Source of the DNA: Gemmatimonadota bacterium
GTDB taxonomy: Bacteria > Gemmatimonadota > Gemmatimonadetes > Longimicrobiales > Gaopeijiaceae
Length of the DNA stretch: 36,794 bases
NCBI GenBank assembly: GCA_039589315.1
Contig: JBDHHQ010000073.1
Location: 1 to 36,794 of the forward strand
Reading direction: 5' to 3'
Part shown: in pieces, positions 219 through 35,177 of the stretch
Layout of the letters: every line of letters starts with the position of its first letter
Position numbering within the stretch: the stretch's first letter is position 1
Notes under the pieces: model-generated
The model's database searches: none
The model's input: only the letters and a program-made list of their open reading frames with translations
What the model was told of the DNA's origin: nothing
Made by a program: the position numbers and the translations under genes

Positions 219-391
219 CTCTAACAAACAATCGCTACTGGCGCGGTGGACGTGAACGGCTCAGGGGCCCCTCGTCGCCAGGACTCCTCGGAGCGATGAG
301 CCTTGATCGCTCGCTCTGGTCACACCTACGGTGTTCACGTCGCTGCGCGCGTCAGCACTAGGCCGCGCAGAAGAATCGCAATCCGTTACGT
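219..391 (+). mobile_element. attC-like recombination site, long form (173 bp)
   Basis: CTCTAAC (219-225) ... GTTACGT (385-391); left arm ATCGCTACTGGCGCGG pairs imperfectly with right arm CCGCGCAGAAGAATCGC; inner stem GACGTGAAC (249-257)/GTTCACGTC (333-341); interior repeated at several other intergenic sites. Confidence 0.85.
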
Positions 392-421
392 AGCCAAGTC
401 ACTGATCGAGAGGGGATAAGC

Positions 422-1159
422 GTGACTGACCGCGAAGGGCATGGACGCCACGACCCGATGTCAGCGCCGCGGTATATGGATATTCCCACGTTCATGCGGA
501 CTCCGCTGATCGATGATCCGGCCGAGTTCGACATCGCCCTGGTCGGGATTCCCTACGACGGAGCGGTCACGAATCGCCCGGGCGCACGGCATGGGCCTAG
601 GGAGGTGCGTAACGCGTCGAGCATGATGCGCGCGATCCACCCCACGTCGCGTATTAATCCGTATGAACTGTGTCGGGTTGGCGACGGCGGCGACGTACCA
701 TTTACGCGCCTATACGAACCTGAGTCTGCCCATCAGGACATCGAGAGGTTCATCTCCAGGTTTGCTACCGCTGGCGCCCGCACCGTGGCTGCGGGAGGTG
801 ATCACTCCGTGACTCTACCGGTGCTCCGAGCGGTGGTTTCGGACGGGCCGGTGGGCTTGATCCACATCGATGCTCATACCGATACGTGGGATGAGTTCAT
901 GGGATCGCGCTATAGCCACGGCGCGCCGTTTCGTCGAGCGGTTGAGGAAGGGCTCATCGACCCTCGCCGCACGATACAGATCGGGATCCGTGGTGCCCAG
1001 AACTCGACGGAGGGATGGGACTACTCGCACTCGAGTGAGATGCGCGTCGTGTTCATGGACGAGGTGACGCGGATGGCGCCCCTGAGGGCCAAGCGTTCGG
1101 CGCAGACGGGATGGGGTTTGCTGCAGACGGGCCGCAGCTACTGGGTTCAGGCCTTGTAG
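422..1159 (+). pseudogene. speB: Agmatinase/ureohydrolase, 3'-truncated
   Basis: GIPYD, RPGARHGP, GGDHS and HIDAHTD motifs; similarity ends near nt 1075 (VFMDEV) and the C-terminal S(F/L)DxDxxDP metal-binding motif is missing. Confidence 0.85.
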
Positions 1160-1209
1160 GTCGTGAATCTGCCGTGGATGCCTCACGCACCCGAATGTCC
1201 AGCGCCCGT

Positions 1210-1659
1210 TTAGCGCCCTTCGACCTGATTCCAGATCCGAGCGTAGCGCGCGGCCCCCCCGGCCGGCGACCACATCACCAGGGCTCGAGTGGGCGACGCA
1301 CCCTCAGGAGTGACGTGGTTGACGAAGTCGGGAGGCGTCACGTGACCGAGCATGCCCGGTTCGAGGATCGTGCTCTCTCCGTTCACGACATGCTCAAGGG
1401 TGCCCTCCAGCACATAGAAGATCTCGGTCTGGTCGTGTTGGTGATCACCGGAGTTCATGCCCGGAGGGAAGGTCATGATGCCCACGTCCAACGGCACGTC
1501 CCTACCCAGCCCATCGAACAGGATCTTCACGCGAGTATCCCCGCTCTCGAAGACCGCCCCTTCCAGCGACTCTTGTGTGATAGCGCCCGCCGCGAACGAC
1601 GCCGCGCAGGCGCTCACCATCGCAACGACCAGCACCACATGTTGGATCTCCTTCTTCAT
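1210..1659 (-). CDS. Cupin-domain protein with signal peptide
   Basis: HQHDQTEIFYVLEG ... G..GHVTPP...NH cupin motifs; GGGAGG RBS ahead of ATG at 1659; hydrophobic N-terminus. Confidence 0.85.
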   Translation of the reverse strand: MKKEIQHVVLVVAMVSACAASFAAGAITQESLEGAVFESGDTRVKILFDGLGRDVPLDVGIMTFPPGMNSGDHQHDQTEIFYVLEGTLEHVVNGESTILEPGMLGHVTPPDFVNHVTPEGASPTRALVMWSPAGGAARYARIWNQVEGR

Positions 1660-1832
1660 CACAGCCTCCCAGGATGGCGTTGGACCGCCAACGTGATCAC
1701 GCGACAGGGGAGAGACAAGACGGTCGCCTGGTTCACAGGTAGAGGCCTTCGCCCGGGCAGCCATGCAAGTGTTTCCCGAGAGGGGGTCAAGGCCAACGTT
1801 TTGGAGAGCAAGACGAGCAAGCACCGGAGACC

Positions 1833-1914
1833 ACCTAACCAGCGGTTGCTGCAGACGCGGTGGACGGGAGTCGGGTGGTGTAGGTCGCGCAGCAGAACCG
1901 AAGAGCCGTCAGGC
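1833..1914 (+). mobile_element. attC-like site, short form (82 bp), core GTT changed to GTC
   Basis: ACCTAAC (perfect RYYYAAC) CAGCGGTTGCTGCAGACGCGG ... TCGCGCAGCAGAACCGAAGAGCC GTCAGGC; arms pair with two unpaired bases on the left arm, as expected for attC. Confidence 0.85.
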
Positions 1915-2073
1915 GACGAAAGCGCCATGGGCCAACCGCCGTTGCGCAGGCCCTCCCATGACCCGGAGTCGTTCCAGATAGCTGGTGATTGCGCGATTCG
2001 GCTGCAACGCTGCTCCGTACTTCTCGTGTCGAACTGAACGGACGAAGACAGCCCAAAGCGAAGAGGACGGTAA

Positions 2074-2820
2074 ATGGATCGGTCACAGCGACGAGTTCGG
2101 TGGCTCATGGCTCTGAATGCACTGACGTTGATCTCGTTGGGCGTGGTTCTATTCGTCCTGTTCTCTGGTCAGGGTCGCCTCAGGCTCAAGGAACTGAGCG
2201 CCCGGCGTGTCGATATCGCGGGTCCGGACGGACGCCCCGTCTTGGCCCTGGCGCACCGCACCGCGATTCCCGGACCTTCGATCAACGGCAAGAACTACCC
2301 GCCTGATGTCATTGAGAGTCGTCCGCTATTGTCAGGAATGATCTTCTTCAACGACCAGGGCGATGAGGTCGGTGGGTTGATCTACAATGGGATCACTCGC
2401 GGGTCAGGCTACTCCGCGGTCGGCCACCTCTCGTTTGACCAGTGGAGACAGAATCAGGTCGTAGCGATCCAATACAACGATAACGGACGGACGCGGCGTG
2501 CCGGCCTGAACGTGTGGGATCGCCCGACCGATCGGACAATGGACCAGCAGCTTGACCTCCTCGGGCGGATTCGAGGGGCCGAGGGCGAAGAACGGGATTC
2601 TCTGATGCGCGTCCACTCCGAGGCACAGGTTGCGGGTGACTACGGGGTACAGCGGCTCTTTGCCGGTAGCCGAGACGAGACCGCGCAAGTCGAGCTACGA
2701 GACACCGCTGGCCGAGTGAGGGCGCGGCTGAGCGTGGATGCGGCGGGTGTCGCACGCCTCGAGTTCCTGGACGAGTCGGGAAGGGTAGTCGCCACCTACC
2801 CTGGCGCGAGTGCCAGCTAA
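2074..2820 (+). CDS. Hypothetical protein with N-terminal membrane anchor; cassette-like gene
   Basis: 248-aa ORF with GAGG RBS and N-terminal TM helix; lies between two attC-like sites and its TAA stop is inside AGCTAAC. Confidence 0.85.
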   Translation: MDRSQRRVRWLMALNALTLISLGVVLFVLFSGQGRLRLKELSARRVDIAGPDGRPVLALAHRTAIPGPSINGKNYPPDVIESRPLLSGMIFFNDQGDEVGGLIYNGITRGSGYSAVGHLSFDQWRQNQVVAIQYNDNGRTRRAGLNVWDRPTDRTMDQQLDLLGRIRGAEGEERDSLMRVHSEAQVAGDYGVQRLFAGSRDETAQVELRDTAGRVRARLSVDAAGVARLEFLDESGRVVATYPGASAS

Positions 2821-3107
2821 CGAGCGATTGCTGCAGACGCAGTGAGCGAGAAGCGGCCTGGGAGGCTCCTCGTCGCGGTTGCTCCTCGGAACGATGAGCC
2901 CTGATCGCCTCCTAACACGGTATCGCTGCCGTCCAGGAAGTCTGTGGTGGCCATGCGCGATGCGCACGCGTAAGCCTTGGTGCTCCGTCCGCGGCATTGC
3001 AGAGAACGTTGGAGGGCAGCGCAGCGCTTGGTCCGTTCACTCCCACGGTGTTCACGTCGCTGCGCGGTGGGCGGGCAGGTCGCGCCGCGGAGATCTACTG
3101 GTTGGCA
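2815..3107 (+). mobile_element. Mosaic/interrupted attC-like site(s)
   Basis: AGCTAACGAGCGATTGCTGCAGACGC left arm; interior CTCCTCGGAACGATGAGCCCTGATCGC to ~2909; resumes at ~3032 with CCGTTCACTCCCACGGTGTTCACGTCGCTGCGCGGTGG...GGTCGCGC; intervening 2910-3014 is itself bounded by TCCTAAC and GTTGGAG. Confidence 0.75.
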
Positions 3108-3308
3108 CGGCGAGGGGGACGGCAGGCCAGGCGATGAACTACGCCCGCCTTCGGGCGGTAGATCAGGCCGTGGAAGACGCGCTCGAGAGTGCTATTCAAG
3201 CCCGGTGAGCAGGCCTGCGGTGTCCCCGGCGCCGCGCCGTGGCACCTCGTCGAATGACCCAGCCCACAAGACTTGGACCGAGAACAGCCCAATCACAAGG
3301 AGAGAGAA

Positions 3309-3607
3309 GTGAAGAAGTTCGTGCTGCTCCATTACGGATTCGAGACGCCCACCCCGGAGATCATGAAGGCATGGAGCACCTGGTTCGAGTCAGTCGCCGA
3401 CAGGACGGTTGACAACGGTGGCTTCAGCGGCGGGCGAGAGGTCTCCGCCTCTGGAACAAGGGACCTCCCATGGGGAATGGAGTCCATCACTGGCTACACG
3501 GTGATCGAGGCCGAGAGCCTTGACGAGAGGCAGAGGAGATCGCTCGAGACAATCCCTATATCGCGAGCATCCGCGTCTACGAGGTCAGGGGTATCCAGCG
3601 CGCCTGA
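3309..3607 (+). pseudogene. YCII-related protein, frameshifted
   Basis: KKFVLLHYG...W..WF...VD.G...ITGYTVIEAESLDE, then the natural tail AEEIARDNPYIASIRVYEVR continues in another frame after GACGAGAGGCAG (~3522-3533). Confidence 0.8.
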
Positions 3608-3865
3608 CTGACGAGGAGCCCCAGGGGACTGAAGAGGCCTACGCCCACGTTCCGGACCCTAGCTCGAACTGGTTCGTTCCAGCGAGTCCCTGCGGAGAGA
3701 CATCCGTCCGCAGGACCCGGAGCGGTATTCGAGAGCCTCGCGGAAGAAGTCGCACGACGTGGGGCGAAGTGCTGGTTCTGGAACGCATTGAGTGTTGGAG
3801 TTGGCTCAGGGAGTGATCCCAACCAACTTACGGTCGGCTCCGCCGAGCCAACGGCCCTCGCCCAG

Positions 3866-3910
3866 AGGAGGACAACCGATGAGCGACACAGGAGGACAAC
3901 GGATGAGCGA
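3866..3910 (+). repeat. Tandem duplication of RBS plus start codon (21 bp, period 24)
   Basis: AGGAGGACAACCGATGAGCGA (3866-3886) and AGGAGGACAACGGATGAGCGA (3890-3910), 20/21 identical. Confidence 0.9.
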
Positions 3911-4253
3911 GTCGCCCGGGGCCGTCGCTCGAACCTGGCTCCGGGCCTGGGACACCGGCGACCTGAGCCTGCTTCGTCTCGCCCCAGATTTCGTCCACAC
4001 GAGTCCCTTCGGCCGTATCGAGGGCGCCGAGGAGTACCTTCGCATCGTCGAGCCCATGTCGCGGAAGAGCGTCCTCGGGATCACGGTGAGGGATGTGATC
4101 GAGGACGAGGGCCGGGCGGCCATCACCTACGATCTCGAGACTCCGGCAGGTAAGGTCGAAGCCTGCGACTGGGTCTTCGTAGAGCACGGCCGCATTCTGG
4201 AAGTGAACTCCTATTACGACAGCGTGACGAATCGCGCGGCTCTCGATAGCTGA
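3879..4253 (+). CDS. SnoaL-like / NTF2 family protein
   Basis: WLRAWDTGDL..L.LAPDFVHTSPFGRIEG...Y pattern; strong AGGAGG RBS; alternative in-frame start at 3903. Confidence 0.85.
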   Translation: MSDTGGQRMSESPGAVARTWLRAWDTGDLSLLRLAPDFVHTSPFGRIEGAEEYLRIVEPMSRKSVLGITVRDVIEDEGRAAITYDLETPAGKVEACDWVFVEHGRILEVNSYYDSVTNRAALDS

Positions 4254-4258
4254 GCGGG

Positions 4259-4360
4259 CGGAGCGATGAGCCTCGATCGCCTGCTCCGTTCACGCCTACG
4301 GTGTTCACGTCGCTGCGCGGTGGATGGAGGTCGCGCGGAAGAATCGCGAGCTCGTTACAT
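4259..4360 (+). mobile_element. attC-like site, left arm deleted
   Basis: CGGAGCGATGAGCCTCGATCGC...TTCACGCCTACGGTGTTCACGTCGCTGCGCG...GGTCGCGCGGAAGAATCGCGAGCTC GTTACAT, closely matching 289-391; begins just after the SnoaL stop. Confidence 0.85.
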
Positions 4361-4387
4361 GATTCCCTCTCCGAACGATTGAGTCAG

Positions 4388-4703
4388 ATGATGCCAAGGC
4401 TTCGGCTACCGGCGGCGTTCAGTGCCGCCGTTCTCCTTCTCCTTCTGCTTCTTATCCGGCGGTCAGGTGCTCAAAGCGATGCTGGGTAGTCTGGACAGGG
4501 TCGTACGGGTCGTGAAGGTACTTGGGATGGTCAACGCCGACCCGGATTTCGTGGATCATCCGGCCGTGATCAACGGGTTCTCGGACCTGATCGTAGAGGT
4601 CTTCGGCGAGCGCGGACGGCACGCGCGGGCCGCGGTGGGGATGGCCTCGTTACCGCGTGGCCAGGCCGTGGAAATCGAAATGATCGACGAGGTACGCGAC
4701 TAG
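4388..4703 (+). pseudogene. RidA/YjgF family protein, internally deleted
   Basis: C-terminal half LGSLDRVVRVVKVLGMVNA.PDF.DHPAVINGFSDL..EVFGERGRHARAAVGMASLP..AVEIE; preceded in another frame by a signal-like peptide MMPRLRLPAAFSAAVLLLLL. Confidence 0.8.
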
Positions 4704-4822
4704 GGAGTACATGTGACGCACCGCATCAGGTTGGTCCCAGGGTTTGTGGTTCGGCTTTCGGCGTTCTTTCCGATGTGGCGCGCGAGGGCGCAGTCGGAAG
4801 GAGACACACCCATCGAATTGAG

Positions 4823-5254
4823 ATGAGACTTACCGTTGAAGAACATCGGGAGGCGATCAAGCGGTACAGTCACGTCAGGCCCGCTCGCGGCTCGAAAAGC
4901 AGGTTGTGCTCCACCCTGTGCCCCGGCACGCGCCGCACCTGCACGCTCGGGAAGGGCCATAGGGGACCCCATGTCGCCCACGGCCTGTTCAAGAAGGTCG
5001 TCGCTGTGTGGGAGTCGGACACCGGAGCTGGAGTATCCAAGGAGCCGGTAGGAAACGCTGCGCACGCCAAGTCACGAAGCGGTGTCGGGACGAGGAAGCC
5101 AATCGGTCTCCGGACCGGGAGACCAGTCGGGATCCTCGAGGCTCTTAGGGAGCGTGTCGTCGGCACTGTCGGTTCTGTGGAGGAGATCGCGTTCCTCATT
5201 TTCTTCCTTGCCTTTGTGGGGTTCGCCATCCATTGGTTCTTGCTACTGGGATAG
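4823..5254 (+). CDS. Hypothetical protein with Cys/His cluster and C-terminal TM helix
   Basis: CSTLC...CTLGKGHRGPHVAH motif; C-terminal IAFLIFFLAFVGFAIHWFLLL; start uncertain (4775 or 4823). Confidence 0.7.
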   Translation: MRLTVEEHREAIKRYSHVRPARGSKSRLCSTLCPGTRRTCTLGKGHRGPHVAHGLFKKVVAVWESDTGAGVSKEPVGNAAHAKSRSGVGTRKPIGLRTGRPVGILEALRERVVGTVGSVEEIAFLIFFLAFVGFAIHWFLLLG

Positions 5255-5288
5255 ACTGTTCGCTAGCACACAGGCCAAACCCGACACC

Positions 5289-5786
5289 ATGCCTCTCGTC
5301 AGACGTCTTCGTGACCACGAGTGGCGAGCGTACCGCGATCTGCGGCTTCGCTCCCTGAGAGATTCGCCGGATGCCTTCGGTAGTAGATTCGACCAGGAAA
5401 AGCGACGATCTGACGCCGAGTGGGCGGAGCGGGTCGCGGCCGGGACCAGGTCCGAGTCGGTGCTTCCGCTGGTGGTTCCGGAGGAAGCGGATTTCGTTGG
5501 CTTGGCCTGGGCGAAGATCAAGTCGCCCGACCCCGATACTGCGCGCGTATCCCAGATGTGGGTTGTGCCCGAAAGGCGGGGCCGAGGACTTGGCTTTGAA
5601 CTGCTTTCTACGGTCGTCAGCTGGGCTCGGGATGCGAAGGCGCGCCGCGTGGTCCTCCGTGTCACCTGTGACAACACGACCGCGCGACGGCTGTACGTCC
5701 GGGCCGGCTTCAAGGATCTGGGCGAGTCGGAGCCACTCAGGCCAGGCGCGAGCATGCGGTCGCAGCCCATGTGCCTCGACCTCTGA
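5289..5786 (+). CDS. GNAT family N-acetyltransferase
   Basis: MWVVPERRGRGLG acetyl-CoA motif; N..ARRLY.RAGF. Confidence 0.9.
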   Translation: MPLVRRLRDHEWRAYRDLRLRSLRDSPDAFGSRFDQEKRRSDAEWAERVAAGTRSESVLPLVVPEEADFVGLAWAKIKSPDPDTARVSQMWVVPERRGRGLGFELLSTVVSWARDAKARRVVLRVTCDNTTARRLYVRAGFKDLGESEPLRPGASMRSQPMCLDL

Positions 5787-5836
5787 GGCAGTGCCGAGGG
5801 GCGTCCACTTCCGAAGACGTGGTGAGCGGACCAGTC

Positions 5837-6028
5837 GGCACATTCTCGGTCGACGCTGAGGCTGGTGACGTGACGCATCACCTCGAGGTCGCTTCGATCC
5901 CGAATTGGGTCGGAACCGATCACCTGCGGATGTTCGAGTTCGGGGACGGTACGCTCAGGTTGAGTACGCCGCCCATAATGATCGACGGTGTCGCTGCGGT
6001 GAGCGTCCTACTCTGGCGCCGCGACTGA
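5837..6028 (+). pseudogene. Lipocalin-like domain protein, C-terminal fragment
   Basis: GTFSVD....VTHHLEVASIPNWVGTD..R.FEF.DGTLRLST....LLWRR resembles the Lipocalin_5 C-terminus; N-terminal half absent. Confidence 0.75.
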
Positions 6029-6077
6029 GGCCGGCCGCTCCAACGGCCGTGCAAGGGAAGGTGGTCCGCTCCCATCC

Positions 6078-6809
6078 ATGTTCTCCGAAGCCCCCGAGCT
6101 CTACGACCTCATCTATGGGTCCTTCAAAGACTATCGATCCGAGGCGGACAAGATCGCCGAGGTGCTCAGTACAGCAGCCCCTGAGGCCAAGACCGTCCTC
6201 GATGTAGCGTGCGGTACTGGGGAACATGCGCGGCATCTGCATGCCGAACATGGCTACGTCGTCGCTGGCCTCGACATCGAGCCGGGGTTCGTGGCAATCG
6301 CTCGCTCCAAGCTACCCAACAGGCGATTCTGGCACGCCGACATGGCCGGTTTCGACCTCGGCGTCCGGTTCGACGCCATCCTCTGCTTGTTCAGCTCCAT
6401 CGCCTACCTCTGCGAGTTGGACCAGGTCGAGCAGGCCCTCCGCTGTTGCCACAGGCACCTCGAACCGGATGGTGTCCTACTCGTTGAGCCGTGGTTCGAG
6501 CCCCACTCATGGGCCCCAGGACGTGTCTACGTTCAGACGTCAGAGTCGGAGAATCTCCGCGTCATCCGGATGAGTCACTCCAAAGTCGCGGGCCGGATCT
6601 CGAAGCTCGAGTTCCACTACTTGATCGGCACGGCCGAGGGCATCGATCATCGTGTCGAGCGCCACGAGCTCGGGTTGTTCACGACGGCAGAGACCCTCGA
6701 GCGCTTTCGGCGCGCGGGCTTCACCGACGTCACCCACGACCCCGAGGGCCTGACCGGCAGGGGGATGTTCGTTGCGCGCGTCGATCGGGCAGAGAGCCAC
6801 AAGCCTTGA
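6078..6809 (+). CDS. Class I SAM-dependent methyltransferase (TylM1/DesVI-like)
   Basis: YDLIY..KDY..EA, VLDVACGTGEH, CLFSSIAY, LLVEPWF, LTGRGMFVA. Confidence 0.9.
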   Translation: MFSEAPELYDLIYGSFKDYRSEADKIAEVLSTAAPEAKTVLDVACGTGEHARHLHAEHGYVVAGLDIEPGFVAIARSKLPNRRFWHADMAGFDLGVRFDAILCLFSSIAYLCELDQVEQALRCCHRHLEPDGVLLVEPWFEPHSWAPGRVYVQTSESENLRVIRMSHSKVAGRISKLEFHYLIGTAEGIDHRVERHELGLFTTAETLERFRRAGFTDVTHDPEGLTGRGMFVARVDRAESHKP

Positions 6810-6896
6810 TGGCTCGCTCGGTTCACAGCTACGGTGTTCCCATCGCTGCGCGATGAGCAGGTCGAGTTGCGCCGTCGGATCGCGAAGCCGTCAGAC
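6802..6896 (+). mobile_element. Degenerate attC-like site, right half
   Basis: AGCCTTGATGGCTCGCTCGGTTCACAGCTACGGTGTTCCCATCGCTGCGCG aligns to 299-349; ends GGATCGCGAAGCC GTCAGAC. Confidence 0.8.
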
Positions 6897-6945
6897 AGCG
6901 CCAGAACGTGGCTGTCCGCAACGCCTTGCCCCTGGAGCGAGATCT

Positions 6946-7845
6946 ATGACTGAGCCTGACGAAATGGGGGATCTGGTGGCGTCGCTGGAACAAGCGGCCG
7001 TCCGAGCTGACGGAAAGGGCCAGCTCAACATCAGCAAGCTACTCCGCGCTTCTGCAACTGCGCTTGTCCGAAGGGCAGCGGCGGCGAGAGGCTATCCCGA
7101 TGAGTCTGAGCTGCTTGCGGCGGATCTCGCAGATCTCGCGAATCGGCTCAAGGGAACCGGCATCGATCCAGCCTTCAGCGAGCGACTGCAGCTGGGCGCG
7201 AAGTTGGTCGCTCGCGGCCAGCAGAGCTACATCGACGAGTTCCCCGACCCTTACGTGTGCCGCCGTTGCGGAGCGATCGAGGCGAACAATCCCGTATCCA
7301 GTTGCGACACGTGCGGCGCTCACGAGCTGACGTTTGAACGCTTTCGGCCGGTCTACTGGATGACCGTCTATCGACCGCACGAGGTCATGGAGCGGCTTGC
7401 CGGGAATCCGCCCCTCTTCCAAGAGGCGATCGATCGGATGCCTGACGATCGCCTGGAGTGGACCCCCGCCGAAACAGCATGGGCGGCGGTCGACGTGCTT
7501 CGTCACGTCCGCGATGCACAGTCCGTGTTGGCGCAACGCATCGTGCTCATTTTGGACGAGGATGACCCGCCACTGGAGTTCCAGGCGGTCTTCGAGTGGA
7601 CGAATCAGGGGACGGGGCGGGCGGAGTCGGCTCATTCGATCCTGGACGCATACATCGCGTCCCGGGACGCCTCGTTGTCACGTCTTCAAGCCATGGAGCC
7701 TGACGGCTGGAGCCGCACGGGCGTCCACGAGGAATTCGGGCGAGTCACGCTGATCGAGCAGGCAAGCTACTTCGCGGCGCACGAGTTGATCCATCTGCGT
7801 CAGTTGGAACAGCTCCGGCGCGCCATCGCCTCGAGCGAGGACTAA
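6946..7845 (+). CDS. DinB family protein with N-terminal rubredoxin-like CxxC...CxxC module
   Basis: YVCRRCG...CDTCGA; W.A.DVLRHVRDA, W.RTGVHEEFG, HELIHLRQL. Confidence 0.85.
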   Translation: MTEPDEMGDLVASLEQAAVRADGKGQLNISKLLRASATALVRRAAAARGYPDESELLAADLADLANRLKGTGIDPAFSERLQLGAKLVARGQQSYIDEFPDPYVCRRCGAIEANNPVSSCDTCGAHELTFERFRPVYWMTVYRPHEVMERLAGNPPLFQEAIDRMPDDRLEWTPAETAWAAVDVLRHVRDAQSVLAQRIVLILDEDDPPLEFQAVFEWTNQGTGRAESAHSILDAYIASRDASLSRLQAMEPDGWSRTGVHEEFGRVTLIEQASYFAAHELIHLRQLEQLRRAIASSED

Positions 7846-7866
7846 TCAACACCGGGCGCGTTACAT
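7840..7866 (+). mobile_element. Possible collapsed attC relic (ends only)
   Basis: GACTAAT containing the DinB stop, then CCGGGCGC GTTACAT overlapping the next ATG; same GTTACAT as 4354-4360 and similar to CCGGGCGCC GTTAC at 10441-10454. Confidence 0.35.
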
Positions 7867-8266
7867 GGCGCTGAGACTCGAAGGCATGTGCCCGCTACTG
7901 CAGGTCTTCGACATGCCCACGGCCATCGCGTTCTATCGCGATGTCCTGGGGTTCGTGGTCGTCGATTCCGCTCCGCCCGGGGACGACTGGGACTGGGTCT
8001 GGCTACGTAGCAATGACGCCGAAGTCATGTTGAACACGGCCTACGAGGTGCCGTACCGCCCCTCCGCGCCGGATCCCGCCCGCGTGGCCGCGCATTCGGA
8101 TACCACCGTGTACTTCGGCTGTCGCGATGTGGACGGCGCCTATGAGTATCTGGCAGGGCAGGGTGTCGAGCTCGAGCCCCCGACGACCGCCCCCTATGGT
8201 ATGCGTCAGCTCTATGTCCGCGATCCCGACGGCTACAACCTCTGCTTCCAGTGGCCAGACGGCTAA
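7865..8266 (+). CDS. VOC family (glyoxalase/bleomycin-resistance-like) protein
   Basis: PLLQVFDM..AIAFYRDVLGF; APYGMRQLYVRDPDGYNLCF; TAA stop lies within GGCTAAC. Confidence 0.92.
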   Translation: MALRLEGMCPLLQVFDMPTAIAFYRDVLGFVVVDSAPPGDDWDWVWLRSNDAEVMLNTAYEVPYRPSAPDPARVAAHSDTTVYFGCRDVDGAYEYLAGQGVELEPPTTAPYGMRQLYVRDPDGYNLCFQWPDG

Positions 8267-8325
8267 CGAGGTCACGGCCCGGGTGGGCTGATGAGTCGGA
8301 CAACAGAATCGCAAAGCCGTTGGAC
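8261..8325 (+). mobile_element. attC-like site with damaged left arm
   Basis: GGCTAAC (holds VOC stop) ... CAACAGAATCGCAAAGCC GTTGGAC (perfect GTTRRRY); right arm resembles those at 361-391 and 1885-1914. Confidence 0.7.
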
Positions 8326-8386
8326 GGCGCCCTGGGGCCGATCCGGAGATCCGACCAGGGCGCCCTCAGGTTGTCTTGCGCCTGTG

Positions 8387-10285
8387 CTATGGAATCGTCG
8401 GAAGGAAGGTTTCCATTTCCACCCGTTGACGCGCCAGATCTTCATCGACGACTCGAACGGCCTCCAGGAACCGTGGGTCATTCCGGACCGTATCCCAGGT
8501 CGGATCGATCTGGAGCATCCGGTAGTTGGGATATCCGGCGGTGACGGCGTCAAGCAGCCGAAGCAGCGCGTCCGCGGGGAGACCCTGGAGCATGAGCGCC
8601 TGAGCGGACGCGTAGAGGACCTGGGGTGAGGTCGCGGAGTCTCTTTCGAGTGCGGCGTCCGCCCTGAGCAGGGCTTCCGTGAGTAGATCACCGACTTCAT
8701 CAGCGCGATCCTGCTGGAGCAGGGCCCAGGCCAGGAGCACTCGCGACTGGACTTGTTGCCCCCACCAGTCCCAATCGGGGTGATCCGTCACCAGAGCACG
8801 GGCAGCGTCTTCGACCCGCCGTGAGTCCCGCTGGCCGAGCCCAAGGCGCATCTCCAACCAGTGGACCTGGGGATCACCCGGGTCTCGTCGCCGGACGATC
8901 GAGAGGGCCTGCTCGGCCGCAGCGAACTCCAGACGCTCGGCCGCGTAGAGAGCCTCGAACACTGCGAGCCAGTAGTAGTCGGGGTCCATCCGTCTGACTT
9001 CGTCCATCCAGCGGCGGTGTTCCTCATCGAGGAGAAGATAGTACGTGTGGTCTGCAACGTGCTCGGCGACGAGTGGATCTGTCGGGGCCACCTTCCGTGC
9101 GCGCGCTATGAGCCTGAGGCCCTGGGCGTGCTGGCGACTCCACCACGCACGCGTCGACAGGCTGATCAGAACCACTTCCCAATTCGGCCGCAGGGCGAGG
9201 GCTCGCTCGTAATCCCCCAGAAGCCGATAGGCCATGGCGTTCTCGGGATCGACTCGCAGTGCCTGCCGCGCGTGGACTCTAGCCGAGTCCCGCATCTCGG
9301 GGCCATAACCCCCCTTTTGTGCCCTTTGCTGATAGGCCATGCCGAGCCAGGCCCACGCGTCGGCGTAATCCGGCGCCACTTTCGTGGCTTGAGCGAAGAA
9401 CTCGAGGGCCTTTTCCACGTCTTCGGGCCCACCCTCGTACAGGTCCCGTCCTCGCAGGACGAGATCGTAAGCGTCGAGGTTCCCGGTGGGAACGGCACGA
9501 ATCCGGCGGGTTTCGTCAGGCGTGAGCGCTGCGTGCAGAGCCGCCGCAATTCGAAGGGTGAGGTCACTTCGGATCTCGAAGAGATTCTCCGTCGTCAGCA
9601 CTTCGTCGTACGTCTGGCCGAACAGATGCGCGTCAGTTTCCGTATCGATCAACTGCACAATGACGCGAATACGATCTCCAACTCGCTCCACCCCTCCTTC
9701 GACGATAGCGCCGACCCCCAACGCCTGACCGATCTCGCGCACGCTCCCCCCGTCGCGATACTCCATCACGGACGTTCGGGAGGTAACCGCCAAGTCTTCA
9801 ATCCGTGAGAGTTGCGTGATGAGCTCGTCGTGTAGACCATCTACGAAGTACCTCTGGTCGGGGACCGAGCTCCGGTTTTCGAGGGGGAGGACTGCGACCG
9901 TGGGCTGACCGAGGGGTGTACGGCGATCGTCGGGGCCACGGTCGCGAGACGAAAGCCACCACACGCCGATTGCCGATGCCCACAGGACCGAAGCGGAGAC
10001 AAACGCTGCCAGCAACCGGGCACGAAAGGCCCCGGTCGAGACCGGTTCGGCCCGCCGGACCCCGGCCGGCGTGACATCGAAGGCCCAGGCCAGGGCAACC
10101 GCGAGGGGGAAACCGAGCGCGAGCAGAAGGAGGACCAGCTGCGCCGTCCAGTTTGGGAGTGCGAGAATCCCGCCCAGCAGGTCCGCAGCTTCCACCAAAG
10201 CCCACGCGACGGCGCCATACAGCAGCGCGACGCGCACGACCTTGCGCTCCTTGAGCTGATCCCAGAACGACGGCCCAAGTGACAT
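8387..10285 (-). CDS. Membrane protein with TolB-like (TolB_N/FlgO-type) domain and TPR repeats
   Basis: LKERKVVRVALLY and LGFPLAVALAWAFDVTP N-terminus; VAVLPLENRS, DGLHDELITQLS, SRTSVMEY; TPR region; C-terminal DPTWDTVRNDPRF. Confidence 0.9.
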   Translation of the reverse strand: MSLGPSFWDQLKERKVVRVALLYGAVAWALVEAADLLGGILALPNWTAQLVLLLLALGFPLAVALAWAFDVTPAGVRRAEPVSTGAFRARLLAAFVSASVLWASAIGVWWLSSRDRGPDDRRTPLGQPTVAVLPLENRSSVPDQRYFVDGLHDELITQLSRIEDLAVTSRTSVMEYRDGGSVREIGQALGVGAIVEGGVERVGDRIRVIVQLIDTETDAHLFGQTYDEVLTTENLFEIRSDLTLRIAAALHAALTPDETRRIRAVPTGNLDAYDLVLRGRDLYEGGPEDVEKALEFFAQATKVAPDYADAWAWLGMAYQQRAQKGGYGPEMRDSARVHARQALRVDPENAMAYRLLGDYERALALRPNWEVVLISLSTRAWWSRQHAQGLRLIARARKVAPTDPLVAEHVADHTYYLLLDEEHRRWMDEVRRMDPDYYWLAVFEALYAAERLEFAAAEQALSIVRRRDPGDPQVHWLEMRLGLGQRDSRRVEDAARALVTDHPDWDWWGQQVQSRVLLAWALLQQDRADEVGDLLTEALLRADAALERDSATSPQVLYASAQALMLQGLPADALLRLLDAVTAGYPNYRMLQIDPTWDTVRNDPRFLEAVRVVDEDLARQRVEMETFLPTIP

Positions 10286-10359
10286 ATCTCGAAGCTAGAC
10301 CGGACTACGAGGCCCCAGCAAGCGCACGGTATGATGGGGGCAGCCGCCCATGCCGAACG

Positions 10360-10456
10360 GACTAACCGCTTGGCCGCAGCCCGCGGTGGTCACGCACCGG
10401 CCAGCGGCCGCCGCCGGGCGCGTGGGAGGTCATGGCCACCCCGGGCGCCGTTACGC
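10360..10456 (+). mobile_element. Degenerate attC-like site
   Basis: GACTAACCGCTTGGCCGCAGCCCGCGGTGG resembles ACCTAACCAGCGGTTGCTGCAGACGCGGTGG (1833-1863); ends in GTTACGC. Confidence 0.5.
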
Positions 10457-10509
10457 GGTATCATCCATGCTGCTCGGACAGCCCGGTTGTCGCCCGGCCC
10501 GGTGTTGGC

Positions 10510-10686
10510 GCGCAGGACGCGATCCACTATCTGAGCGGTGTGGCCTCCCTGAAGTGGCCCCTGCATCGCTGGTACCTGGGGCTGCTCCGCCGCTACCTCC
10601 GAGCGGTGCTTCGAGGGCTCGACTATTACGTGACAACCGAGCGGGATGTGGCGCCAAATCACTGTGGGCGAGTCGGACATGTGTAG
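10510..10686 (+). pseudogene. Probable C-terminal fragment of an SRPBCC-like protein
   Basis: KWPLHRWYLGLLRRYLRAVLRGLDYYVTTERDV resembles the terminal helix of SRPBCC proteins; no matching N-terminus. Confidence 0.4.
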
Positions 10687-12109: not shown

Positions 12110-12116
12110 GGTGACC

Positions 12117-12347: not shown

Positions 12348-12351
12348 TCAC

Positions 12352-12387
12352 GGGTCGAGCGCACATTCACAGGGTTGAGCGCACATT
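12352..12387. repeat. Direct repeat, 16 bp, period 20
   Basis: GGGTCGAGCGCACATT / GGGTTGAGCGCACATT (15/16). Confidence 0.8.
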
Positions 12388-13080: not shown

Positions 13081-13089
13081 TCGGCTGAC

Positions 13090-13170: not shown

Positions 13171-13172
13171 TC

Positions 13173-16275: not shown

Positions 16276-16306
16276 CCCGGTCCATGCGTCGGCGTCGCCG
16301 ATGCAG

Positions 16307-25314: not shown

Positions 25315-26076
25315 ATGACGAGCAGAGCCGAGCGGGTCGCCGCACTCTACGACATACACGGCAACCTCCCGGCGCTCGAGGCCGTCCTTCGAGACATCCA
25401 CGACGCGGGAGTCGATCACATCGTCGTCGGCGGGGACGTCATTCCGGGACCGATGCCGCGAGAGGCGCTCGAAACCCTGTTCGAGTTGGACGTACCGGTC
25501 AGCTTCATCCACGGCAACGGCGAGCGTGAGGTGCTCGCTCGTCTAGCGGGCATCGAGACGGGCGCAGTCCCGGAGCGGTTTCGCGAGGTCATCCGGTGGG
25601 TGGGACAGCAGTTGCCCGACCGGTATGTGGAGCTCCTCGAGAGCTGGCCGCCGACGCTCGCAGTCGACGTGCGTGGCGTTGGCCAAGTGCTGTTCTGCCA
25701 TGCGACACCCCGCGACGACAACGAGATCTTCACCAGGCTGACGCCCGAGGACCGGCTCGTCCCTGTCTTCGAACCGGTGAGAGCCCGGGTCGTCGTCTGC
25801 GGTCACACCCACATGCAATTCGACCGTGCCATAGGAACCACGCGTGTCGTGAACGCGGGCAGCGTGGGCATGCCGTTCGGGGAACCGGGCGCGTATTGGC
25901 TCATGGTGGGACCCGACCTCGAGCTGCGCCGGACCAGCTACGACATCGAGGCGGCGGCCGAGCGCGTGCGCGCTACGGAGTATCCACACGCGCAAGAGTT
26001 CGCGGCGGAGAACGTCCTGCGGTCCCCGGCCGAGGCCGCGATGCTCGAGGCGTTCGAGCGGGCGGCGCTCCGATAA
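25315..26076 (+). CDS. Metallophosphoesterase family protein
   Basis: DIHGN, GGD, HGNGE, CHATP, CGHTH, NAGSVG. Confidence 0.92.
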   Translation: MTSRAERVAALYDIHGNLPALEAVLRDIHDAGVDHIVVGGDVIPGPMPREALETLFELDVPVSFIHGNGEREVLARLAGIETGAVPERFREVIRWVGQQLPDRYVELLESWPPTLAVDVRGVGQVLFCHATPRDDNEIFTRLTPEDRLVPVFEPVRARVVVCGHTHMQFDRAIGTTRVVNAGSVGMPFGEPGAYWLMVGPDLELRRTSYDIEAAAERVRATEYPHAQEFAAENVLRSPAEAAMLEAFERAALR

Positions 26077-26288
26077 TCGGGTGCTGCGCGGGGGCCTGGC
26101 CGCAATCGCGCAAAAGCCGCGCTGCTGTACCGTCTAGGCACGGTCTGTGGAGCCCCGCCAGGGGCGCGTTGCTCCTGGTTGCGCCGACCTTCGTCGGATG
26201 TGCAGGTTTGACGTAGCGTCGATTGGCGCGCTTTCGAGGAGAGCCGCGACGCTTGGGCCAGAACGCTCCAGGAAGGGCGGACTCGCAT

Positions 26289-26858
26289 ATGTTCAACAAG
26301 CTCGATGTGCACCGGATCTTGAGGCGGGCGGCAGAGATGGAGGGGGCGGAGGACACCGCACTTCTCACGGTCGAAGAGCTGCGCTCGATTGCGGGCGAGG
26401 CCGGGTTCGGGGCGCGCAGCGTCGATCGTGCGATCGACGAGGCGCAGAAAGCCGGGTCCGCACCGGTTCACCGTCATCCGGTCCAGAAGTCGGGAGTCGT
26501 GATCACCCACCTCTCCACGATCCGAACGATTCCGATCGAGATCAGCTCAGAGCAGCTCATGACGGCAGTGCGGCTCTTTCAGCCCTATCGGGAGGGGCCG
26601 GCCCAGGTCAACCTCGGTGAGCACGAGATGACGTGGCGCGATCGTACGGGCCTCAGATTCACAGTCACCACCGGTGCGGGGGTGACGCAGATCCGCGTCT
26701 TCGTTTCGAAGATCCTGGTTCGACGGGGCCGCTGGATGGGCTGGGTGAACGCGGCGGCCGATACACTGGAATCGCTGGTCTCCCTGGTGGCGAATGGGGA
26801 CCAACCGCGCAAGGCGTCCCACGCGCAACTCCCACGAGCCGGGATTCCACCCGCCTGA
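26289..26858 (+). CDS. Hypothetical protein
   Basis: Protein-like ORF (ILRRAAE....LTVEELRSIAGEAG) with GC-rich codon bias; no family recognised. Confidence 0.7.
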   Translation: MFNKLDVHRILRRAAEMEGAEDTALLTVEELRSIAGEAGFGARSVDRAIDEAQKAGSAPVHRHPVQKSGVVITHLSTIRTIPIEISSEQLMTAVRLFQPYREGPAQVNLGEHEMTWRDRTGLRFTVTTGAGVTQIRVFVSKILVRRGRWMGWVNAAADTLESLVSLVANGDQPRKASHAQLPRAGIPPA

Positions 26859-27029: not shown

Positions 27030-27905
27030 ATGGATCTCCAGCGCGCCTCGGCCGAGGTCCACATCGACGCGGACCTCGCCCGGGCCCTCCTTCGGGACCA
27101 GTACGCGCCATTGGCCGGCGAGCCCCTCGTCTTGGTCGACGAGGGCTGGGACAACGTGACGTACCGGGCCGGGTCCGCATATGCCGCCCGGATCCCGCGG
27201 CGCCGGGTCGCTGTCGACTTGCTCCTGAACGAGCACAGGTGGCTTCCGTTCATAGCACCGCGGCTATCCGTGGCGGTGCCTCGGCCGGTGTTCCCCGGGG
27301 TTCCGTCCGCACTCTTCCCCTGACCGTGGAGCGTCGTGGAGTGGGTCCCGGGCAAGACCGCTGACCAGAGTCCGCTTCCGCCCGGTCAGGCTCCGCGCCT
27401 GGCCGAATTCCTCCTGGCACTGCACCGACCCGCCCCCGCGGACGCTCCGTCCAATCCGTTCCGCGGCGTGCCGCTGGAGGGGCGGCAGGACGTCGTGGAG
27501 GAACGGCTGGCTCGGTTGGACTTGAACCAGTTGGCGCACATCTGGCGCACGGGGATCGAAGCGGCCCCCGCAGAGGACAGCATCTGGCTGCACGGCGACC
27601 TCCATCCTCGGAACGTCGTCGTGCGGGACGGGACGTTGGCGGGCATCATTGACTGGGGTGACGTGACGGCCGGCGACGTGGCGACGGACCTGGCATGCGC
27701 GTGGATGCTGTTCGACTCGGAAGCCGGTCGACGTGCCTTCCTGCAAGCGTACGAGCCGTCGGAAACATCGCTGATCCGAGCCGCCGCCTGGGCCGTGAAT
27801 TTCGCAGCGGCGCTACTCGACAGCGGGGAGCCGCGGCACGTGCGGATTGGCGCCGCGGTCGTGCGAGGGCTGGTCGAGTTCGGTGGACCTCCAGGGGGTG
27901 CATGA
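27030..27905 (+). pseudogene. Aminoglycoside phosphotransferase-like (APH family) kinase with in-frame nonsense codon
   Basis: EGWDN..YR, RIPRR, WLHGDLHPRN, GIIDWGD, D.ATDLA; both ORF halves share a frame, separated by TGA at 27321-27323 (FP*PWS). Confidence 0.88.
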
Positions 27906-31079: not shown

Positions 31080-31301
31080 GCCTGCCCACAACGACGTCGC
31101 CGAGCACATCCGGCCCGCACTGCAGAGCCTCGCGGGACGAACGGCGTAGGAATGATCGGCGAGGTACGATCCTCGGTCGCTTGCCTGGTCCGGTCGTGCG
31201 ATGCACCCTTCCGCGGAGCGACGGGAGCTGCACGAGCGCGGGTGCGTGTCAGGCCGTCTTCTCGAACGCCAGCTCTCGCAGTCACGCCGATGGGGGTGCA
31301 C

Positions 31302-32505: not shown

Positions 32506-33228
32506 GTGAGTGACCTCGGCCACATCGAAGCGATCACGTTCGACTTCTACAACACACTCGTTTTTCACCGAGACGGGCGGGGGCGCGGACGACTCCTCGT
32601 CGAGTATCTGGTGACTCACGGGTTTCGGCCGGCACCGTGGGAACACGCCGTCTTGTACGACGTCTTCGAGACGCACGACGCACACTATTCCCCGGAGGCA
32701 TCCCAGGAGGCGCGGGATGAGTATTACGCCCGCCTCGCTCAGCGAGTGTTCCGACGCCTCGAGCTTGGAGCGTCCGAGCGGGACGCGCCCCGGCACGCCA
32801 CGGCGCTGTGGGAGATCCTGGGACCCGCCTGCCTGGGCGTCTTCCCCGAGGTAGCGGGCACGCTCCAGGACCTGCGGGGCGCGGGATACCCGTTGGCCCT
32901 GATCTCGAACTGGCAATGCGGCCTCCGCCACTTCTGCACGGAGCTCGGCCTGTCGGAACACTTCGACCACATCCTGGGCTCAGCGGACCTCGGTGTAGCG
33001 AAGCCGGACGTGCGCATCTTTGCCCATGCTTGCGAGCGATTGGGTGTGGCCGCCGACCGCGTCCTTCACGTCGGCGACACACTGGAGGACGACTACCTCG
33101 GTGGGAGGAGCGCAGGGCTTTCCGTCGCTCTCCTCGCAAGGGACGAGGGATCGGAACCTGCCGTGGCAAGGGTGATCAGCAGCCTCGCCGAGGTGCGCAC
33201 GATGCTCCCCGGTCAAACGGGGCAGTAG
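32506..33228 (+). CDS. HAD family hydrolase
   Basis: ITFDFYNTL, LISNW, KPD.RIF, HVGDTLEDDY.G; start approximate. Confidence 0.9.
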   Translation: MSDLGHIEAITFDFYNTLVFHRDGRGRGRLLVEYLVTHGFRPAPWEHAVLYDVFETHDAHYSPEASQEARDEYYARLAQRVFRRLELGASERDAPRHATALWEILGPACLGVFPEVAGTLQDLRGAGYPLALISNWQCGLRHFCTELGLSEHFDHILGSADLGVAKPDVRIFAHACERLGVAADRVLHVGDTLEDDYLGGRSAGLSVALLARDEGSEPAVARVISSLAEVRTMLPGQTGQ

Positions 33229-33341
33229 CTCTACCCGCGGTATGCGGGACCGGATGCCGTTCTCGCTTGCAGCTGAGCATCGCGAAGCCGCAGCTTGCAC
33301 GGAGCCGGTTGGATGTCATCGCCAGAAGGTGGGAGAAGGCC

Positions 33342-34160
33342 ATGGGTGCGAGGGGCTGGAGCGCGGTAGCGGGAGCTCTGTTGATACATGTGAGCGCCAG
33401 CATGGGACTCGCACAGGCTCCGAAACGCGGGATCGAGCTGGTCGATCTGACGTGGGTCGAAGCGGAAGAGGTGCTCGGACCCGAGACCATCGTCGTGATA
33501 CCCCTCGGCGCCGCGTCCAAAGAGCACGGTCCCCATCTGCGTCTGGACAACGACCTGCAGATGGCTGACTACCTGAAGGAGCGCGTGCTGGAGGCCGCGG
33601 ACGTGGTCGTCGCACCCACGATCTCCTACCACTTCTATCCCTCATTCCTCGAATACCCGGGCTCGACGCATCTCCGCTTCGAGACAGCGCGAGACGTGGT
33701 GGTGGACATCGTCGAGAGCCTGGCTGGGTACGGACCTCGGCGGTTCTATGTCCTGAATACGGGCGTCTCGACGCTACGCCCTCTCGAAGCCTCGGCGCAG
33801 GCGCTCGAGGGCGAGGGCATCGTCCTGCGCTTCACGAATATCCTGGAGGTGGCCGGGGCGGCCGAGGATCAGGTGCGCGAGCAGGTGCGGGGGACTCACG
33901 CAGACGAGATCGAGACGTCGATGATGCTCTACATCGCGCCCGAGCGGGTCGACATGGCCCTCGCCGTGCGCGAGGACAACCCGAGAGGTCGTGGCGGCCT
34001 CACGCGCCGAGCGGAGGGGGAGGGGACCTACTCCGAATCGGGTGTATGGGGCGATGCGACGCTGGCCACGTTGGAGAAAGGCCGCATCGTCGTGGAGGCC
34101 ACCGTCGCGGGCATCCTTCGTGATATCGAGGGTCTGGCAGCGGCCGAACTGCCCCGCTAG
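33342..34160 (+). CDS. Creatininase family amidohydrolase with signal peptide
   Basis: LTWVE, VIPLGA..KEHGPHL...D, YPGS, HADEIETSMML, SESGVWGDATLAT.EKG. Confidence 0.88.
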   Translation: MGARGWSAVAGALLIHVSASMGLAQAPKRGIELVDLTWVEAEEVLGPETIVVIPLGAASKEHGPHLRLDNDLQMADYLKERVLEAADVVVAPTISYHFYPSFLEYPGSTHLRFETARDVVVDIVESLAGYGPRRFYVLNTGVSTLRPLEASAQALEGEGIVLRFTNILEVAGAAEDQVREQVRGTHADEIETSMMLYIAPERVDMALAVREDNPRGRGGLTRRAEGEGTYSESGVWGDATLATLEKGRIVVEATVAGILRDIEGLAAAELPR

Positions 34161-34177
34161 TAACGGGGCTACCAACG

Positions 34178-34484
34178 ATGACACAGATCGTGATTCTCGG
34201 CCGCGGAGACGAAGCGACGCTTGACGCGGTGGCTCCGGACGTGTTCGACCTTCCGGTTCAGGCGGAGCGCGCCGTCGAGTTTCTGGCGGATGACCGTCAC
34301 CACATTGCGGACCAACCGTCCTGCGATGCGACTATACCACTCTATCGGCGGGCTCGAGCCGTCCTCCGAGACGGTGATGTTCTCGTTTCGGCTTGGAGAG
34401 CGCGACGGTGCGACGGGAGTCGGCAATGGCCGTGACGGATGGCTGCGGTCCGCGCTGACATCAGGCAGGGGAGGGGAGCGATGA
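34178..34484 (+). pseudogene. GNAT acetyltransferase, internally deleted
   Basis: N-terminus L.AVAPDVFDLPV......FLAD.RHHI joined out of frame (~34310) to C-terminus NRPAMRLYHSIGG....VMFSF; central acetyl-CoA motif missing. Confidence 0.75.
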
Positions 34485-35053
34485 AGAAGACCGCGTTCAC
34501 CATTTGGGTCGGAATGGGGATCGCTGTGGCCTGTGCCCCGGATGACCCCGCCGGCCAGCAGGAGCTTCAGCCAGGGGAAGCCCAGACCGCGGATGCGGAG
34601 TTTGGCCGGCTGAACCCACTCGCCCCACCCGAGACCGAACACTGGGGGCGACTTGCGGGGGTTTGGAGCTGCACCATCCCCACCACGACCCCGGATGGAG
34701 CGCCAGGGCAGAGCCGCGCAACGTGGACATGGCGGTACATCCTCGACGGCCACGCGGTTCAGGACGTGTATGTCGGCCACCGGGGCCAGGGGCAACCCGA
34801 CTTCTACGGAACCGGTGTGCGCATCTACCACCCCGGAACCGAGACCTGGGAAATCAGCTGGATCGCCAACTCGCCTTCGACGGGGATTGCGCCCAGGATC
34901 ACCCGCTTCACGGCCACGTCCGAGGGCGGAGACATCGTGATGAGGCGCGCCGAGGGCGATCCGGAGTGGCGGGTCGTGTTCCACGACATCGGTGACGACA
35001 CGTTTGCCTGGAGAAGCGAACCCTCGGGGCAGACGATGACGTGTGCTCGATAG
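34481..35053 (+). CDS. Hypothetical lipoprotein (beta-barrel, DUF1579-like)
   Basis: AVAC lipobox; LAGVWSC, WTWRYILDGHAVQD, GTGVRIYHP...W.ISW; GGAGGGGAG RBS. Confidence 0.75.
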   Translation: MKKTAFTIWVGMGIAVACAPDDPAGQQELQPGEAQTADAEFGRLNPLAPPETEHWGRLAGVWSCTIPTTTPDGAPGQSRATWTWRYILDGHAVQDVYVGHRGQGQPDFYGTGVRIYHPGTETWEISWIANSPSTGIAPRITRFTATSEGGDIVMRRAEGDPEWRVVFHDIGDDTFAWRSEPSGQTMTCAR

Positions 35054-35141
35054 CGCCCTCACCCTCGTACTGACCAGCCGTGGCCGCGTCCCCGGTCAGC
35101 GGCTCCGAGTGGCGCATTCGCCTCCGGGCCAACAGGTTGAC

Positions 35142-35177
35142 GGGAGACCGCTCGTCGGCGGGTCGGAGCCCGATGAG
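35142..35177 (+). mobile_element. Highly eroded attC interior relic
   Basis: GGGAG-N4-CTCGTCG...TCGGAGC(CC)GATGAG, same order and first spacing as in the copies at ~2860-2898 and ~16396-16434. Confidence 0.45.

Follow-up and report, generated by a model that had tools for sequence, protein, structure and literature searches.

A run of decayed attC sites in a Gemmatimonadota genome that looks like the eroded end of a chromosomal integron array

In integrons, the integrase IntI inserts new gene cassettes at the attI site, whereby older cassettes move outward, and the excision of a cassette requires two attC sites that can fold (PMC5371416, PMC8876359). Here, we analyzed a stretch of 36,794 nt, hereafter the window, which is contig JBDHHQ010000073.1 in full from the Gemmatimonadota bacterium assembly GCA_039589315.1 (6.67 Mb in 288 contigs). 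This genome is designated G000 and the window contig C73; G001 is the sister species, and other G numbers denote further relatives. The window carries nine remnants of attC sites, and with moderate confidence we read it as the old distal end of an eroded chromosomal integron array; the integrase gene of that array would be the intact one on contig C97, which is not joined to the window in the assembly. IntI, attI, attC, the same-orientation layout and detached site clusters are all known already; the instructive part is the evolutionary state of the locus.

Among the described systems, the sedentary integron of Vibrio cholerae with its integrase IntIA and its V. cholerae repeats (VCR; PDB 2a3v; PMC5371416) resembles the present one in the IntI insertion, the homogeneous attC family, the bottom-strand hairpin, which comprises an R box, an unpaired spacer, an L box, extrahelical bases and a long branched terminal region, the stop codons overlapping the left end, and the GNAT, VOC, DinB and SnoaL cargo. 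In contrast to the VCR systems, the first bottom-strand extrahelical base here is C, the sites measure about 175 nt against the range of 57–141 bp given in PMC5371416, no window site is intact, neighboring sites lie several kb apart and not about 0.9 kb, and the gene order is frozen between two species. The same-orientation ("inverted integrase") integrons of Treponema (PMC3607928, PMC4889954) share an intI that is transcribed toward attI and the cassettes, but belong to a different phylum and attC family; moreover, the T. phagedenis array is described as frozen by intI loss, whereas here intI is full length and the sites have decayed. Clusters of attC sites lacking integrases (CALIN), with at least two co-oriented attC sites and no intI on the contig (PMC4889954), and the frozen Xanthomonas arrays with their stable cassette order across related genomes (10.1101/2025.06.18.660453) are also alike. 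In the accounts of these two systems, however, freezing is tied to the loss or inactivation of intI, while here the sites are eroded in a gradient and the missing intI perhaps reflects an assembly break. Fixation of cassette genes after attC loss has been described as cassette "de-recruitment" (Boucher et al. 2006, PMC1382264) and as cassette fusion via attC deletion (PMC8876359); the cases presented there are single cassettes, mostly outside an array, whereas here tens of kb appear to be fixed in place at an array end. Pseudogenes of intI are reported to be common (PMC2426708). An initial annotation of the window had placed the array in a lineage where such arrays are little studied, which needs qualification: Gemmatimonadota is already among the lineages listed with integrons (PMC8618304), and the 11 attC models described in PMC8352920 include none for this phylum. 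Among the titles and abstract openings searched, none describes this attC family or an array tail that erodes in place while the intI ahead of it stays intact.

The nine attC remnants lie at seven intergenic loci, all on the plus strand and confined to positions 219–16,524. They belong to a repeat family of about 175 nt, of which repeat finding and blastn revealed copies on C73, C75, C61, C121, C187, C154 and other contigs; a repeat profile run over the genome returned 51 matches at E < 1, part of them noise. To avoid circularity, arm profiles were trained on other genomes only, and an arm matrix was built from 140 sites of other genera. The profiles gave seven window matches of 18.8–36 bits, all on the plus strand, against a genome-wide background of about 0.17 matches per strand per window at ≥10 bits. 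The matrix placed left arms at 219, 1833, 2815 and 2910 and right arms at 361, 1883, 4329, 6865 and 8294; for each of them, the expected number per window is 0.055 or less. A sequence-only model, R1, whose training set included the window copy 217–389, contributed a further copy at 16373–16524 (E 1e-15).

The first remnant (219–391) is a full-length long-type attC of 173 nt with intact AAC and GTT crossover triplets and damaged L-box pairing. Its pfold, the predicted probability of the recombinogenic fold (measured as in PMC5371416 with our own constraint set), is 6e-10, or 1e-4 in the other register, so that this fold is predicted to be absent. The 82-nt site at 1833–1914 has a collapsed central region; its arms pair (pfold 0.06–0.16), and its right end is GTC, not GTT. 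Three collapsed sites occupy 2815–3092, namely the left part of a long-type site (2815–2909), the remnant of a short-type site of about 105 nt that resembles intact sites of other genera (2910–3014), and the right part of a long-type site without its right end (3025–3092). The right half of a long-type site at 4259–4360 is followed by the decayed right part of another long-type site at 6794–6896, the orthologous place of which in G001 has the same truncation and is 82% identical, and by a 65-nt remnant at 8261–8325 that consists of a left end, an internal deletion and a right arm. The last detectable remnant, at 16379–16524, is strongly decayed and has an orthologous remnant in G001.

The stop codons at 2818–2820 and 8264–8266 sit within YTAAC left ends, and the right ends read GTT at 385, 3008, 4354 and 8319 and GTC at 1908 and 6890; in both respects, the initial annotation was right, and its count of about ten co-oriented copies was fair. 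Its extension of the array to 35177 could not be upheld, as the last significant site ends at 16,524 and the stretches scored beyond it are at background. With the arm matrix, this applies to 35040–35240, 33215–33340 and 26060–26290, and equally to 10345–10400. The sole distal R1 matches are marginal (31161–31242, E 0.038; 34988–35107, E 0.25). A candidate site at 10363–10453 was dropped because the generic YAAC...GTT hairpin search gave like counts on both strands (19/19, 9/10 and 3/3).

When 14 long copies from G000 and G001 are combined, their majority consensus forms a canonical attC hairpin of about 175 nt, in which AAC pairs with GTT, the spacer stays unpaired, 10 of 10 L-box pairs form and C and T are extrahelical (pfold 0.11). 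The attC architecture (RYYYAAC ... GTTRRRY, L-box pairing, bottom-strand extrahelical bases) is thus present in the consensus and in the sites of relatives, while the window holds remnants only. In G010, intact sites about 100 nt long have these arms at their ends, and 13 of 15 sites carry both triplets. Of 301 family genomes, 39 contain the exact left-arm motif, with no control matches, and neither G000 nor G001 is one of them. The long central region was detected in these two genomes only (among 41 relatives searched, three matched, the third by its arms only). No long form was found in 400 other genomes of the phylum, a draw that did not include G001 and in which two candidates were scored per genome, nor was there a match in plasmids or in an Rfam scan of the window. 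Two loci in other genera, L108 and L113, hold intact attC sites of 179–182 nt with the same arms and unrelated central regions, so that long sites must have originated repeatedly. Within G000, the matches are concentrated on few contigs with each cluster on one strand, and not spread over the genome in both orientations. The integron cassette architecture proposed for the window is supported by the consensus hairpin, by arms like those of intact sites in relatives, and by the attC-linked homologues described below.

That the array is decaying, as first proposed, agrees with the state of the copies: every one in the window is truncated, mispaired or changed at a crossover triplet. Both crossover triplets are kept in only 3 of the 14 long copies. 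When a competent-looking site is defined as paired, with both crossover triplets, at least 12 of 13 pairs and a pfold >1e-3, three of 14 paired sites in G000 qualify (on C2, C154 and C171, all short type), none of them in C73 or C75, and in six G001 contigs the count is 0 of 9. The predicted folds argue against present-day action of IntI at the window sites. Half-site breakpoints show no clustering and are scattered over the whole element, which is the pattern expected of random deletion; site-specific cutting of the half-sites was rejected on this ground. The deletions run through sites and genes alike. Crossover triplets are changed in 20 of 84 cases (24%) and L boxes mismatched at 46 of 294 positions (16%), compared with a 9.7% mismatch in a central core of 88 positions (p 0.0003 for the triplets, with the core defined post hoc); against the whole central region, the triplet excess has a p of 0.067, and some copies are orthologous. 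It gives a hint, not a result, of survivorship, whereby cassettes with broken sites are retained. At four places (C27:110, C61:27696, C75:20625 and C214:4737), a TATAAG-containing end cuts the attC at one and the same position. These ends are likely scars of an attC-targeting insertion element and resemble the attC-targeting IS1111 elements reported in PMC11187229; a transposase behind the C75 scar was not found.

The first 114 bases of the window are the exact end of the reverse-complemented contig C75, which yields a join of 59 kb. Its first 38.7 kb contain 17 co-oriented site loci, followed by 20 kb without any, and identity to the consensus declines along the join (Spearman -0.59, p 0.026, n = 14 blast hits, a 35-nt hit at 1835 excluded). 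The G+C content rises from 0.63 over the first 13 kb to 0.664 beyond them, compared with 0.675 for the genome. Since it holds no fewer than two attC sites but no intI, the join could pass for a CALIN, although its upstream end is a contig break; C75 begins 86 nt ahead of an attC. In two relatives of the same family, G061 and G010, intI, attI, intact attC sites with the same arms and a decaying tail follow one another on a single contig. In G061, intI (847,376–848,320, plus strand) precedes 15 paired high-scoring sites and then six weak or half sites; in G010, five paired high-scoring sites are followed by nine weaker or half sites. With missing arms scored as 0, the site score drops with distance in both (Spearman -0.57, n = 21, one minus-strand hit dropped, in G061; -0.79, n = 14, in G010). 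By analogy, the window looks like the tails behind intI in these two genomes.

The initial annotation had seen no integrase, which is true of the window; elsewhere in the genome, a full-length IntI gene without stops lies at C97:385–1353 on the minus strand (342.6 bits on TIGR02249, cut-off 265). Its product aligns over the full length to V. cholerae IntI (PDB 2a3v), integron insertion included, and carries the R, K, HxxR, H and Y motifs in this alignment. The three named records coding for its closest relatives are Gemmatimonadota metagenome bins. The R, K, HxxR, H and Y residues presumably serve the roles assigned to them in integron integrases. About 190 nt past the intI stop and on the same strand, an attI-like 7-5-7 site ending in GTTATGC was identified by eye, and the contig ends about 180 nt beyond it. 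Similar 7-5-7 sites follow intI in L017–L020, L023 and L024, and in these relatives a gene then follows the site. On C97 as in G010 and G061, intI is transcribed toward attI and the cassettes, i.e., in the same-orientation layout. A TIGR02249 gene over the cut-off is present in 9 of 41 relatives searched, and in G001 the first 91 intI codons are preserved at a contig end (79% identical), with a ratio of nonsynonymous to synonymous divergence (dN/dS, here obtained by simple counting in a GC-rich genome) of 0.15. A sigma-70 promoter scan around the C97 intI found none.

In the sister species, G001 contigs C48 and C227 are collinear with the window over 6.5–31.7 kb at 75–90% identity with reciprocal gaps. 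The damage of remnants 6794 and 16379 is shared by their G001 orthologues and therefore predates the species split. Several stubs in the window are what deletions left of genes that G001 has in full, namely RidA at 13090, a 304-amino-acid gene at 23939 and the agmatinase. For all 15 collinear genes tested, dN/dS was 0.07–0.26 at a dS of 0.23–0.54; the genes shared with G001 are under purifying selection. In the proximal part, gene order differs between G000 and G001, and these differences point to past cassette mobility. The agmatinase of G001 is a full homologue of 316 amino acids behind an attC with other neighbors and a dS of 1.47; the two cassettes were therefore probably captured separately. 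The gene-order comparison called for at the outset thus gave collinearity in the sister species, and outside the genus only scattered single-gene matches in 59 family genomes, with four candidates scored per genome.

Further evidence comes from homologues of the cargo, the attC linkage of which was judged by the arm test in fetched loci of relatives. Four window genes (CapA, YdjM, YCII-like and APH) have attC-linked homologues. The CapA homologues (74–76% amino acid identity) have an intact attC behind them in G058 and attC sites on either side in G101, the YCII-like gene is 88% identical in nucleotides to a G214 gene behind an attC right arm, and an APH homologue (47%) lies behind an attC right arm in G244, which also holds YdjM as an intact cassette. 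For 7 of the 12 proximal genes with homologues, no attC arm stands beside any of those fetched. The region after CapA showed no significant similarity to the attC of a relative, since 162 of 2000 controls scored equally well.

The explanation that we prefer runs as follows. New cassettes would enter at attI and push old ones to the distal end, where their sites would break via point mutation, random deletion and probably attC-targeting insertion elements. Cassettes with broken sites would no longer be excisable and would become fixed, after which deletion would strip spacers and useless genes, while useful genes stay. Cassette age would thereby increase in stages away from attI, with live sites close to it, half-sites further out and, last, a stretch of former cassette genes without sites. 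The distal 20 kb of the window, which lack attC, would then also stem from the array, and we infer that they are its oldest part. More tentatively, we consider it possible that the integrons of this family act like a conveyor running one way, on which mobile cassettes end up as permanent genes. An intact integrase would bring gain at the head and loss of cassettes with working sites, those with broken sites would survive preferentially at the tail, and deletion would finally erase the sites, so that long islands of co-oriented ex-cassette genes remain under purifying selection.

Several observations weigh against the array-end reading and lend weight to other explanations. C97 has no end overlap with C75 or C73, and a look for sequencing runs listed none. 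Pieces of the attC family are scattered over many further G000 contigs, alone or a few together, and G108 and G138 each hold several separate clusters; detached clusters are thus common here. The G010 intI, which supports the comparison with tails, matches the model only from position 90, and the 106 of 177 paired sites that are competent-looking in other genera, against which the decay in G000 stands out, come from the loci that trained the matrix. The region may be a detached cluster of genuine attC remnants that either was severed from the C97 integron through rearrangement or arose at a secondary site where IntI acted in trans, and that decayed in place. With the second G010 array lying 1.7 Mb away from its intI and with the several clusters of G108 and G138, this is a live alternative, although we judge it unlikely. 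It would also account for isolated copies on the large contigs C11, C15, C27, C33, C39 and C93, and routes by which CALIN form are described (PMC4889954; 10.1101/2022.09.11.507474). Moreover, a gene between attC sites on C61 is matched by an 88% homologue that follows an attC remnant in C15-syntenic surroundings in G001 (L056, G001:C179:4514–5717), possibly through insertion outside the array. However, the one-way decay of 17 co-oriented loci along 38.7 kb agrees with the tails that follow intI in G010 and G061. An assembly break inside one array would also be expected to leave contig ends like these, with C97 stopping about 180 nt past attI and C75 starting 86 nt short of an attC.

A further alternative, compatible with either an array tail or a detached cluster, limits the cassette origin to the first 16.5 kb and regards the distal 20 kb as an ordinary accessory-gene island beside the array. 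To the right of 16,524, neither the arm matrix nor R1 nor the hairpin search gave a significant attC match in the window, and G001 C227 has no attC trace past the remnant orthologous to 16379–16524. In addition, the distal G+C content lies close to that of the genome as a whole, and genes such as Ada, decarboxylase, dipeptidase, DapB and HAD are widespread on chromosomes. Of the 14 distal genes for which homologues were fetched, 12 have no attC arm beside the close ones. The claim that the whole window is an array therefore stands up to 16.5 kb; beyond that, it relies on co-orientation, gene fragments and the 2 of 14 genes with attC-linked homologues. Nevertheless, we consider the island rather unlikely, because two other genera have CapA, which lies at 21 kb here, as a complete cassette, the APH homologue lies behind an attC arm, and the distal genes are unrelated, mostly on the plus strand and cut by mid-gene deletions as in the proximal part, with only the scattered single-gene matches outside the genus. 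The folding of single copies also weighs against the array-end reading. The 215–392 fold is no better than that of shuffled sequences (z +0.87), nor is the 1831–1916 fold (z -0.14), and RNAalifold on 15 copies returned weak structure without the attC stem, with two-sided changes in 3 of 18 pairs; of the pairing arms seen initially, those of the consensus and of 1833–1914 hold, and those of most copies do not. As a last alternative, the repeat could be a dispersed structured element with another function, similar to repetitive extragenic palindromes (REP) or miniature inverted-repeat transposable elements (MITE) or a small RNA, with the well-conserved 88 central positions as its unit, the less conserved triplets and L boxes outside it, and many copies as half-sites. 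We hold this to be highly improbable, since the arms match intact sites behind intI and attI in relatives, all window copies share one strand, the breakpoints are random, Rfam gave no match, and the core was picked after alignment and loses its distinction when the whole central region is used.

If the conveyor holds, many attC-free islands of accessory genes in these genomes would be unrecognized integron tails. The locus touches on two open questions, namely how cassettes pass from the mobile pool into the ordinary gene set and what gives rise to clusters without an integrase. What happens to old cassettes becomes measurable in this system because its stages lie on one scaffold, the sister species dates the damage, and two relatives show gradients behind intI. 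Furthermore, the exact left-arm motif, present in 39 of 301 family genomes, is absent from both genomes of this genus, which hold dozens of eroded copies; surveys that rely on models therefore probably miss part of the integron-derived DNA in this lineage. Four loci, L080 (G068:C28), L135 (G244:C62), L079 (G020:C80) and L092 (G053:C314), contain several clustered homologues of window genes with no attC detected; they may be fully eroded tails.

The cargo itself is varied. Of the 42 open reading frames (ORFs) scanned in the window, 35 are on the plus strand, and Pfam assigned unrelated families: arginase, cupin, SnoaL, RidA, three GNATs, methyltransferase, DinB, two VOC, serine hydrolase, YdjM, flavin monooxygenase, Ada, CapA, decarboxylase, dipeptidase, phosphoesterase, APH, DapB, HAD and creatininase. 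Unrelated genes mostly on the plus strand, as initially described, are thus confirmed, while their being single genes is not general, as several neighbors are fragments or minus-strand genes. Behind the first attC, the agmatinase/arginase-family cassette gene (422–1159, plus) has lost its 3′ end after about 1065 and is followed by a cupin gene in the opposite orientation (1210–1659, minus). An unannotated cassette gene of 248 amino acids (2074–2820, plus) ends with its TAA inside the left end of the next attC. The frameshifted YCII-like cassette (3234–3611, plus) gave no Pfam hit, and we take it to belong to the YCII family. After a SnoaL-like gene (3879–4253, plus), a RidA/YjgF fragment, an unannotated gene, a GNAT, a lipocalin fragment and a methyltransferase abut with no attC between them (4422–6809, plus), and a DinB gene and a VOC/glyoxalase gene follow at 6946–8266 (plus), the VOC stop lying in the left end of the next attC.

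A mixed block on both strands (8387–16275), in which no attC was detected, includes a TPR membrane protein (minus), a RidA stub, a frameshifted ABC permease (minus) and PadR (minus), as well as a serine hydrolase assigned to the beta-lactamase family by a family hit only (10,646–12,109, plus) and the YdjM gene (12529–13080, plus). Directly ahead of YdjM, a membrane-peptide-like ORF of about 37 codons (12,417–12,528) is conserved in G244 and G188, so that the YdjM cassette comprises two genes. The attC-free distal run (16569–36794) consists of unrelated genes and fragments, mostly on the plus strand, and is collinear with G001 to 31.7 kb. It contains the CapA/PGA_cap-family gene (21093–22316, plus) and the APH-family phosphotransferase gene (27030–27905, plus; family hit only), which has an internal stop here despite the low dN/dS of the collinear genes and is open in G001.

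Other mobile elements accompany these integrons. In G010:C1:2,205,741–2,207,804, a recombinase gene and a 402-amino-acid gene, which resembles what we take to be an IS91-type transposase, lie between intI and its attI; the recombinase has seven copies in G010, one of them directly before the second array. An element of about 1.3 kb follows the right ends of attC sites in the G010:C1 arrays (L057–L060) in at least eight copies, with a 68% homologue behind an attC remnant on G000 C240 and C154 also in this set; the element could be a transposase in cassette form. G000 further holds a second, intact-looking family of cassette sites of about 175 nt on C136, C37, C23, C171 and C211, with no remnant in the window. 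One copy lies downstream of a C248 recombinase (1017–2243, minus) without the IntI insertion, and C171 and C23 hold both site families. Finally, repeated ATCGAT palindromes at 16,300–16,350, between the divergent padR and monooxygenase genes of the window, are conserved in G001 and likely represent a PadR operator.

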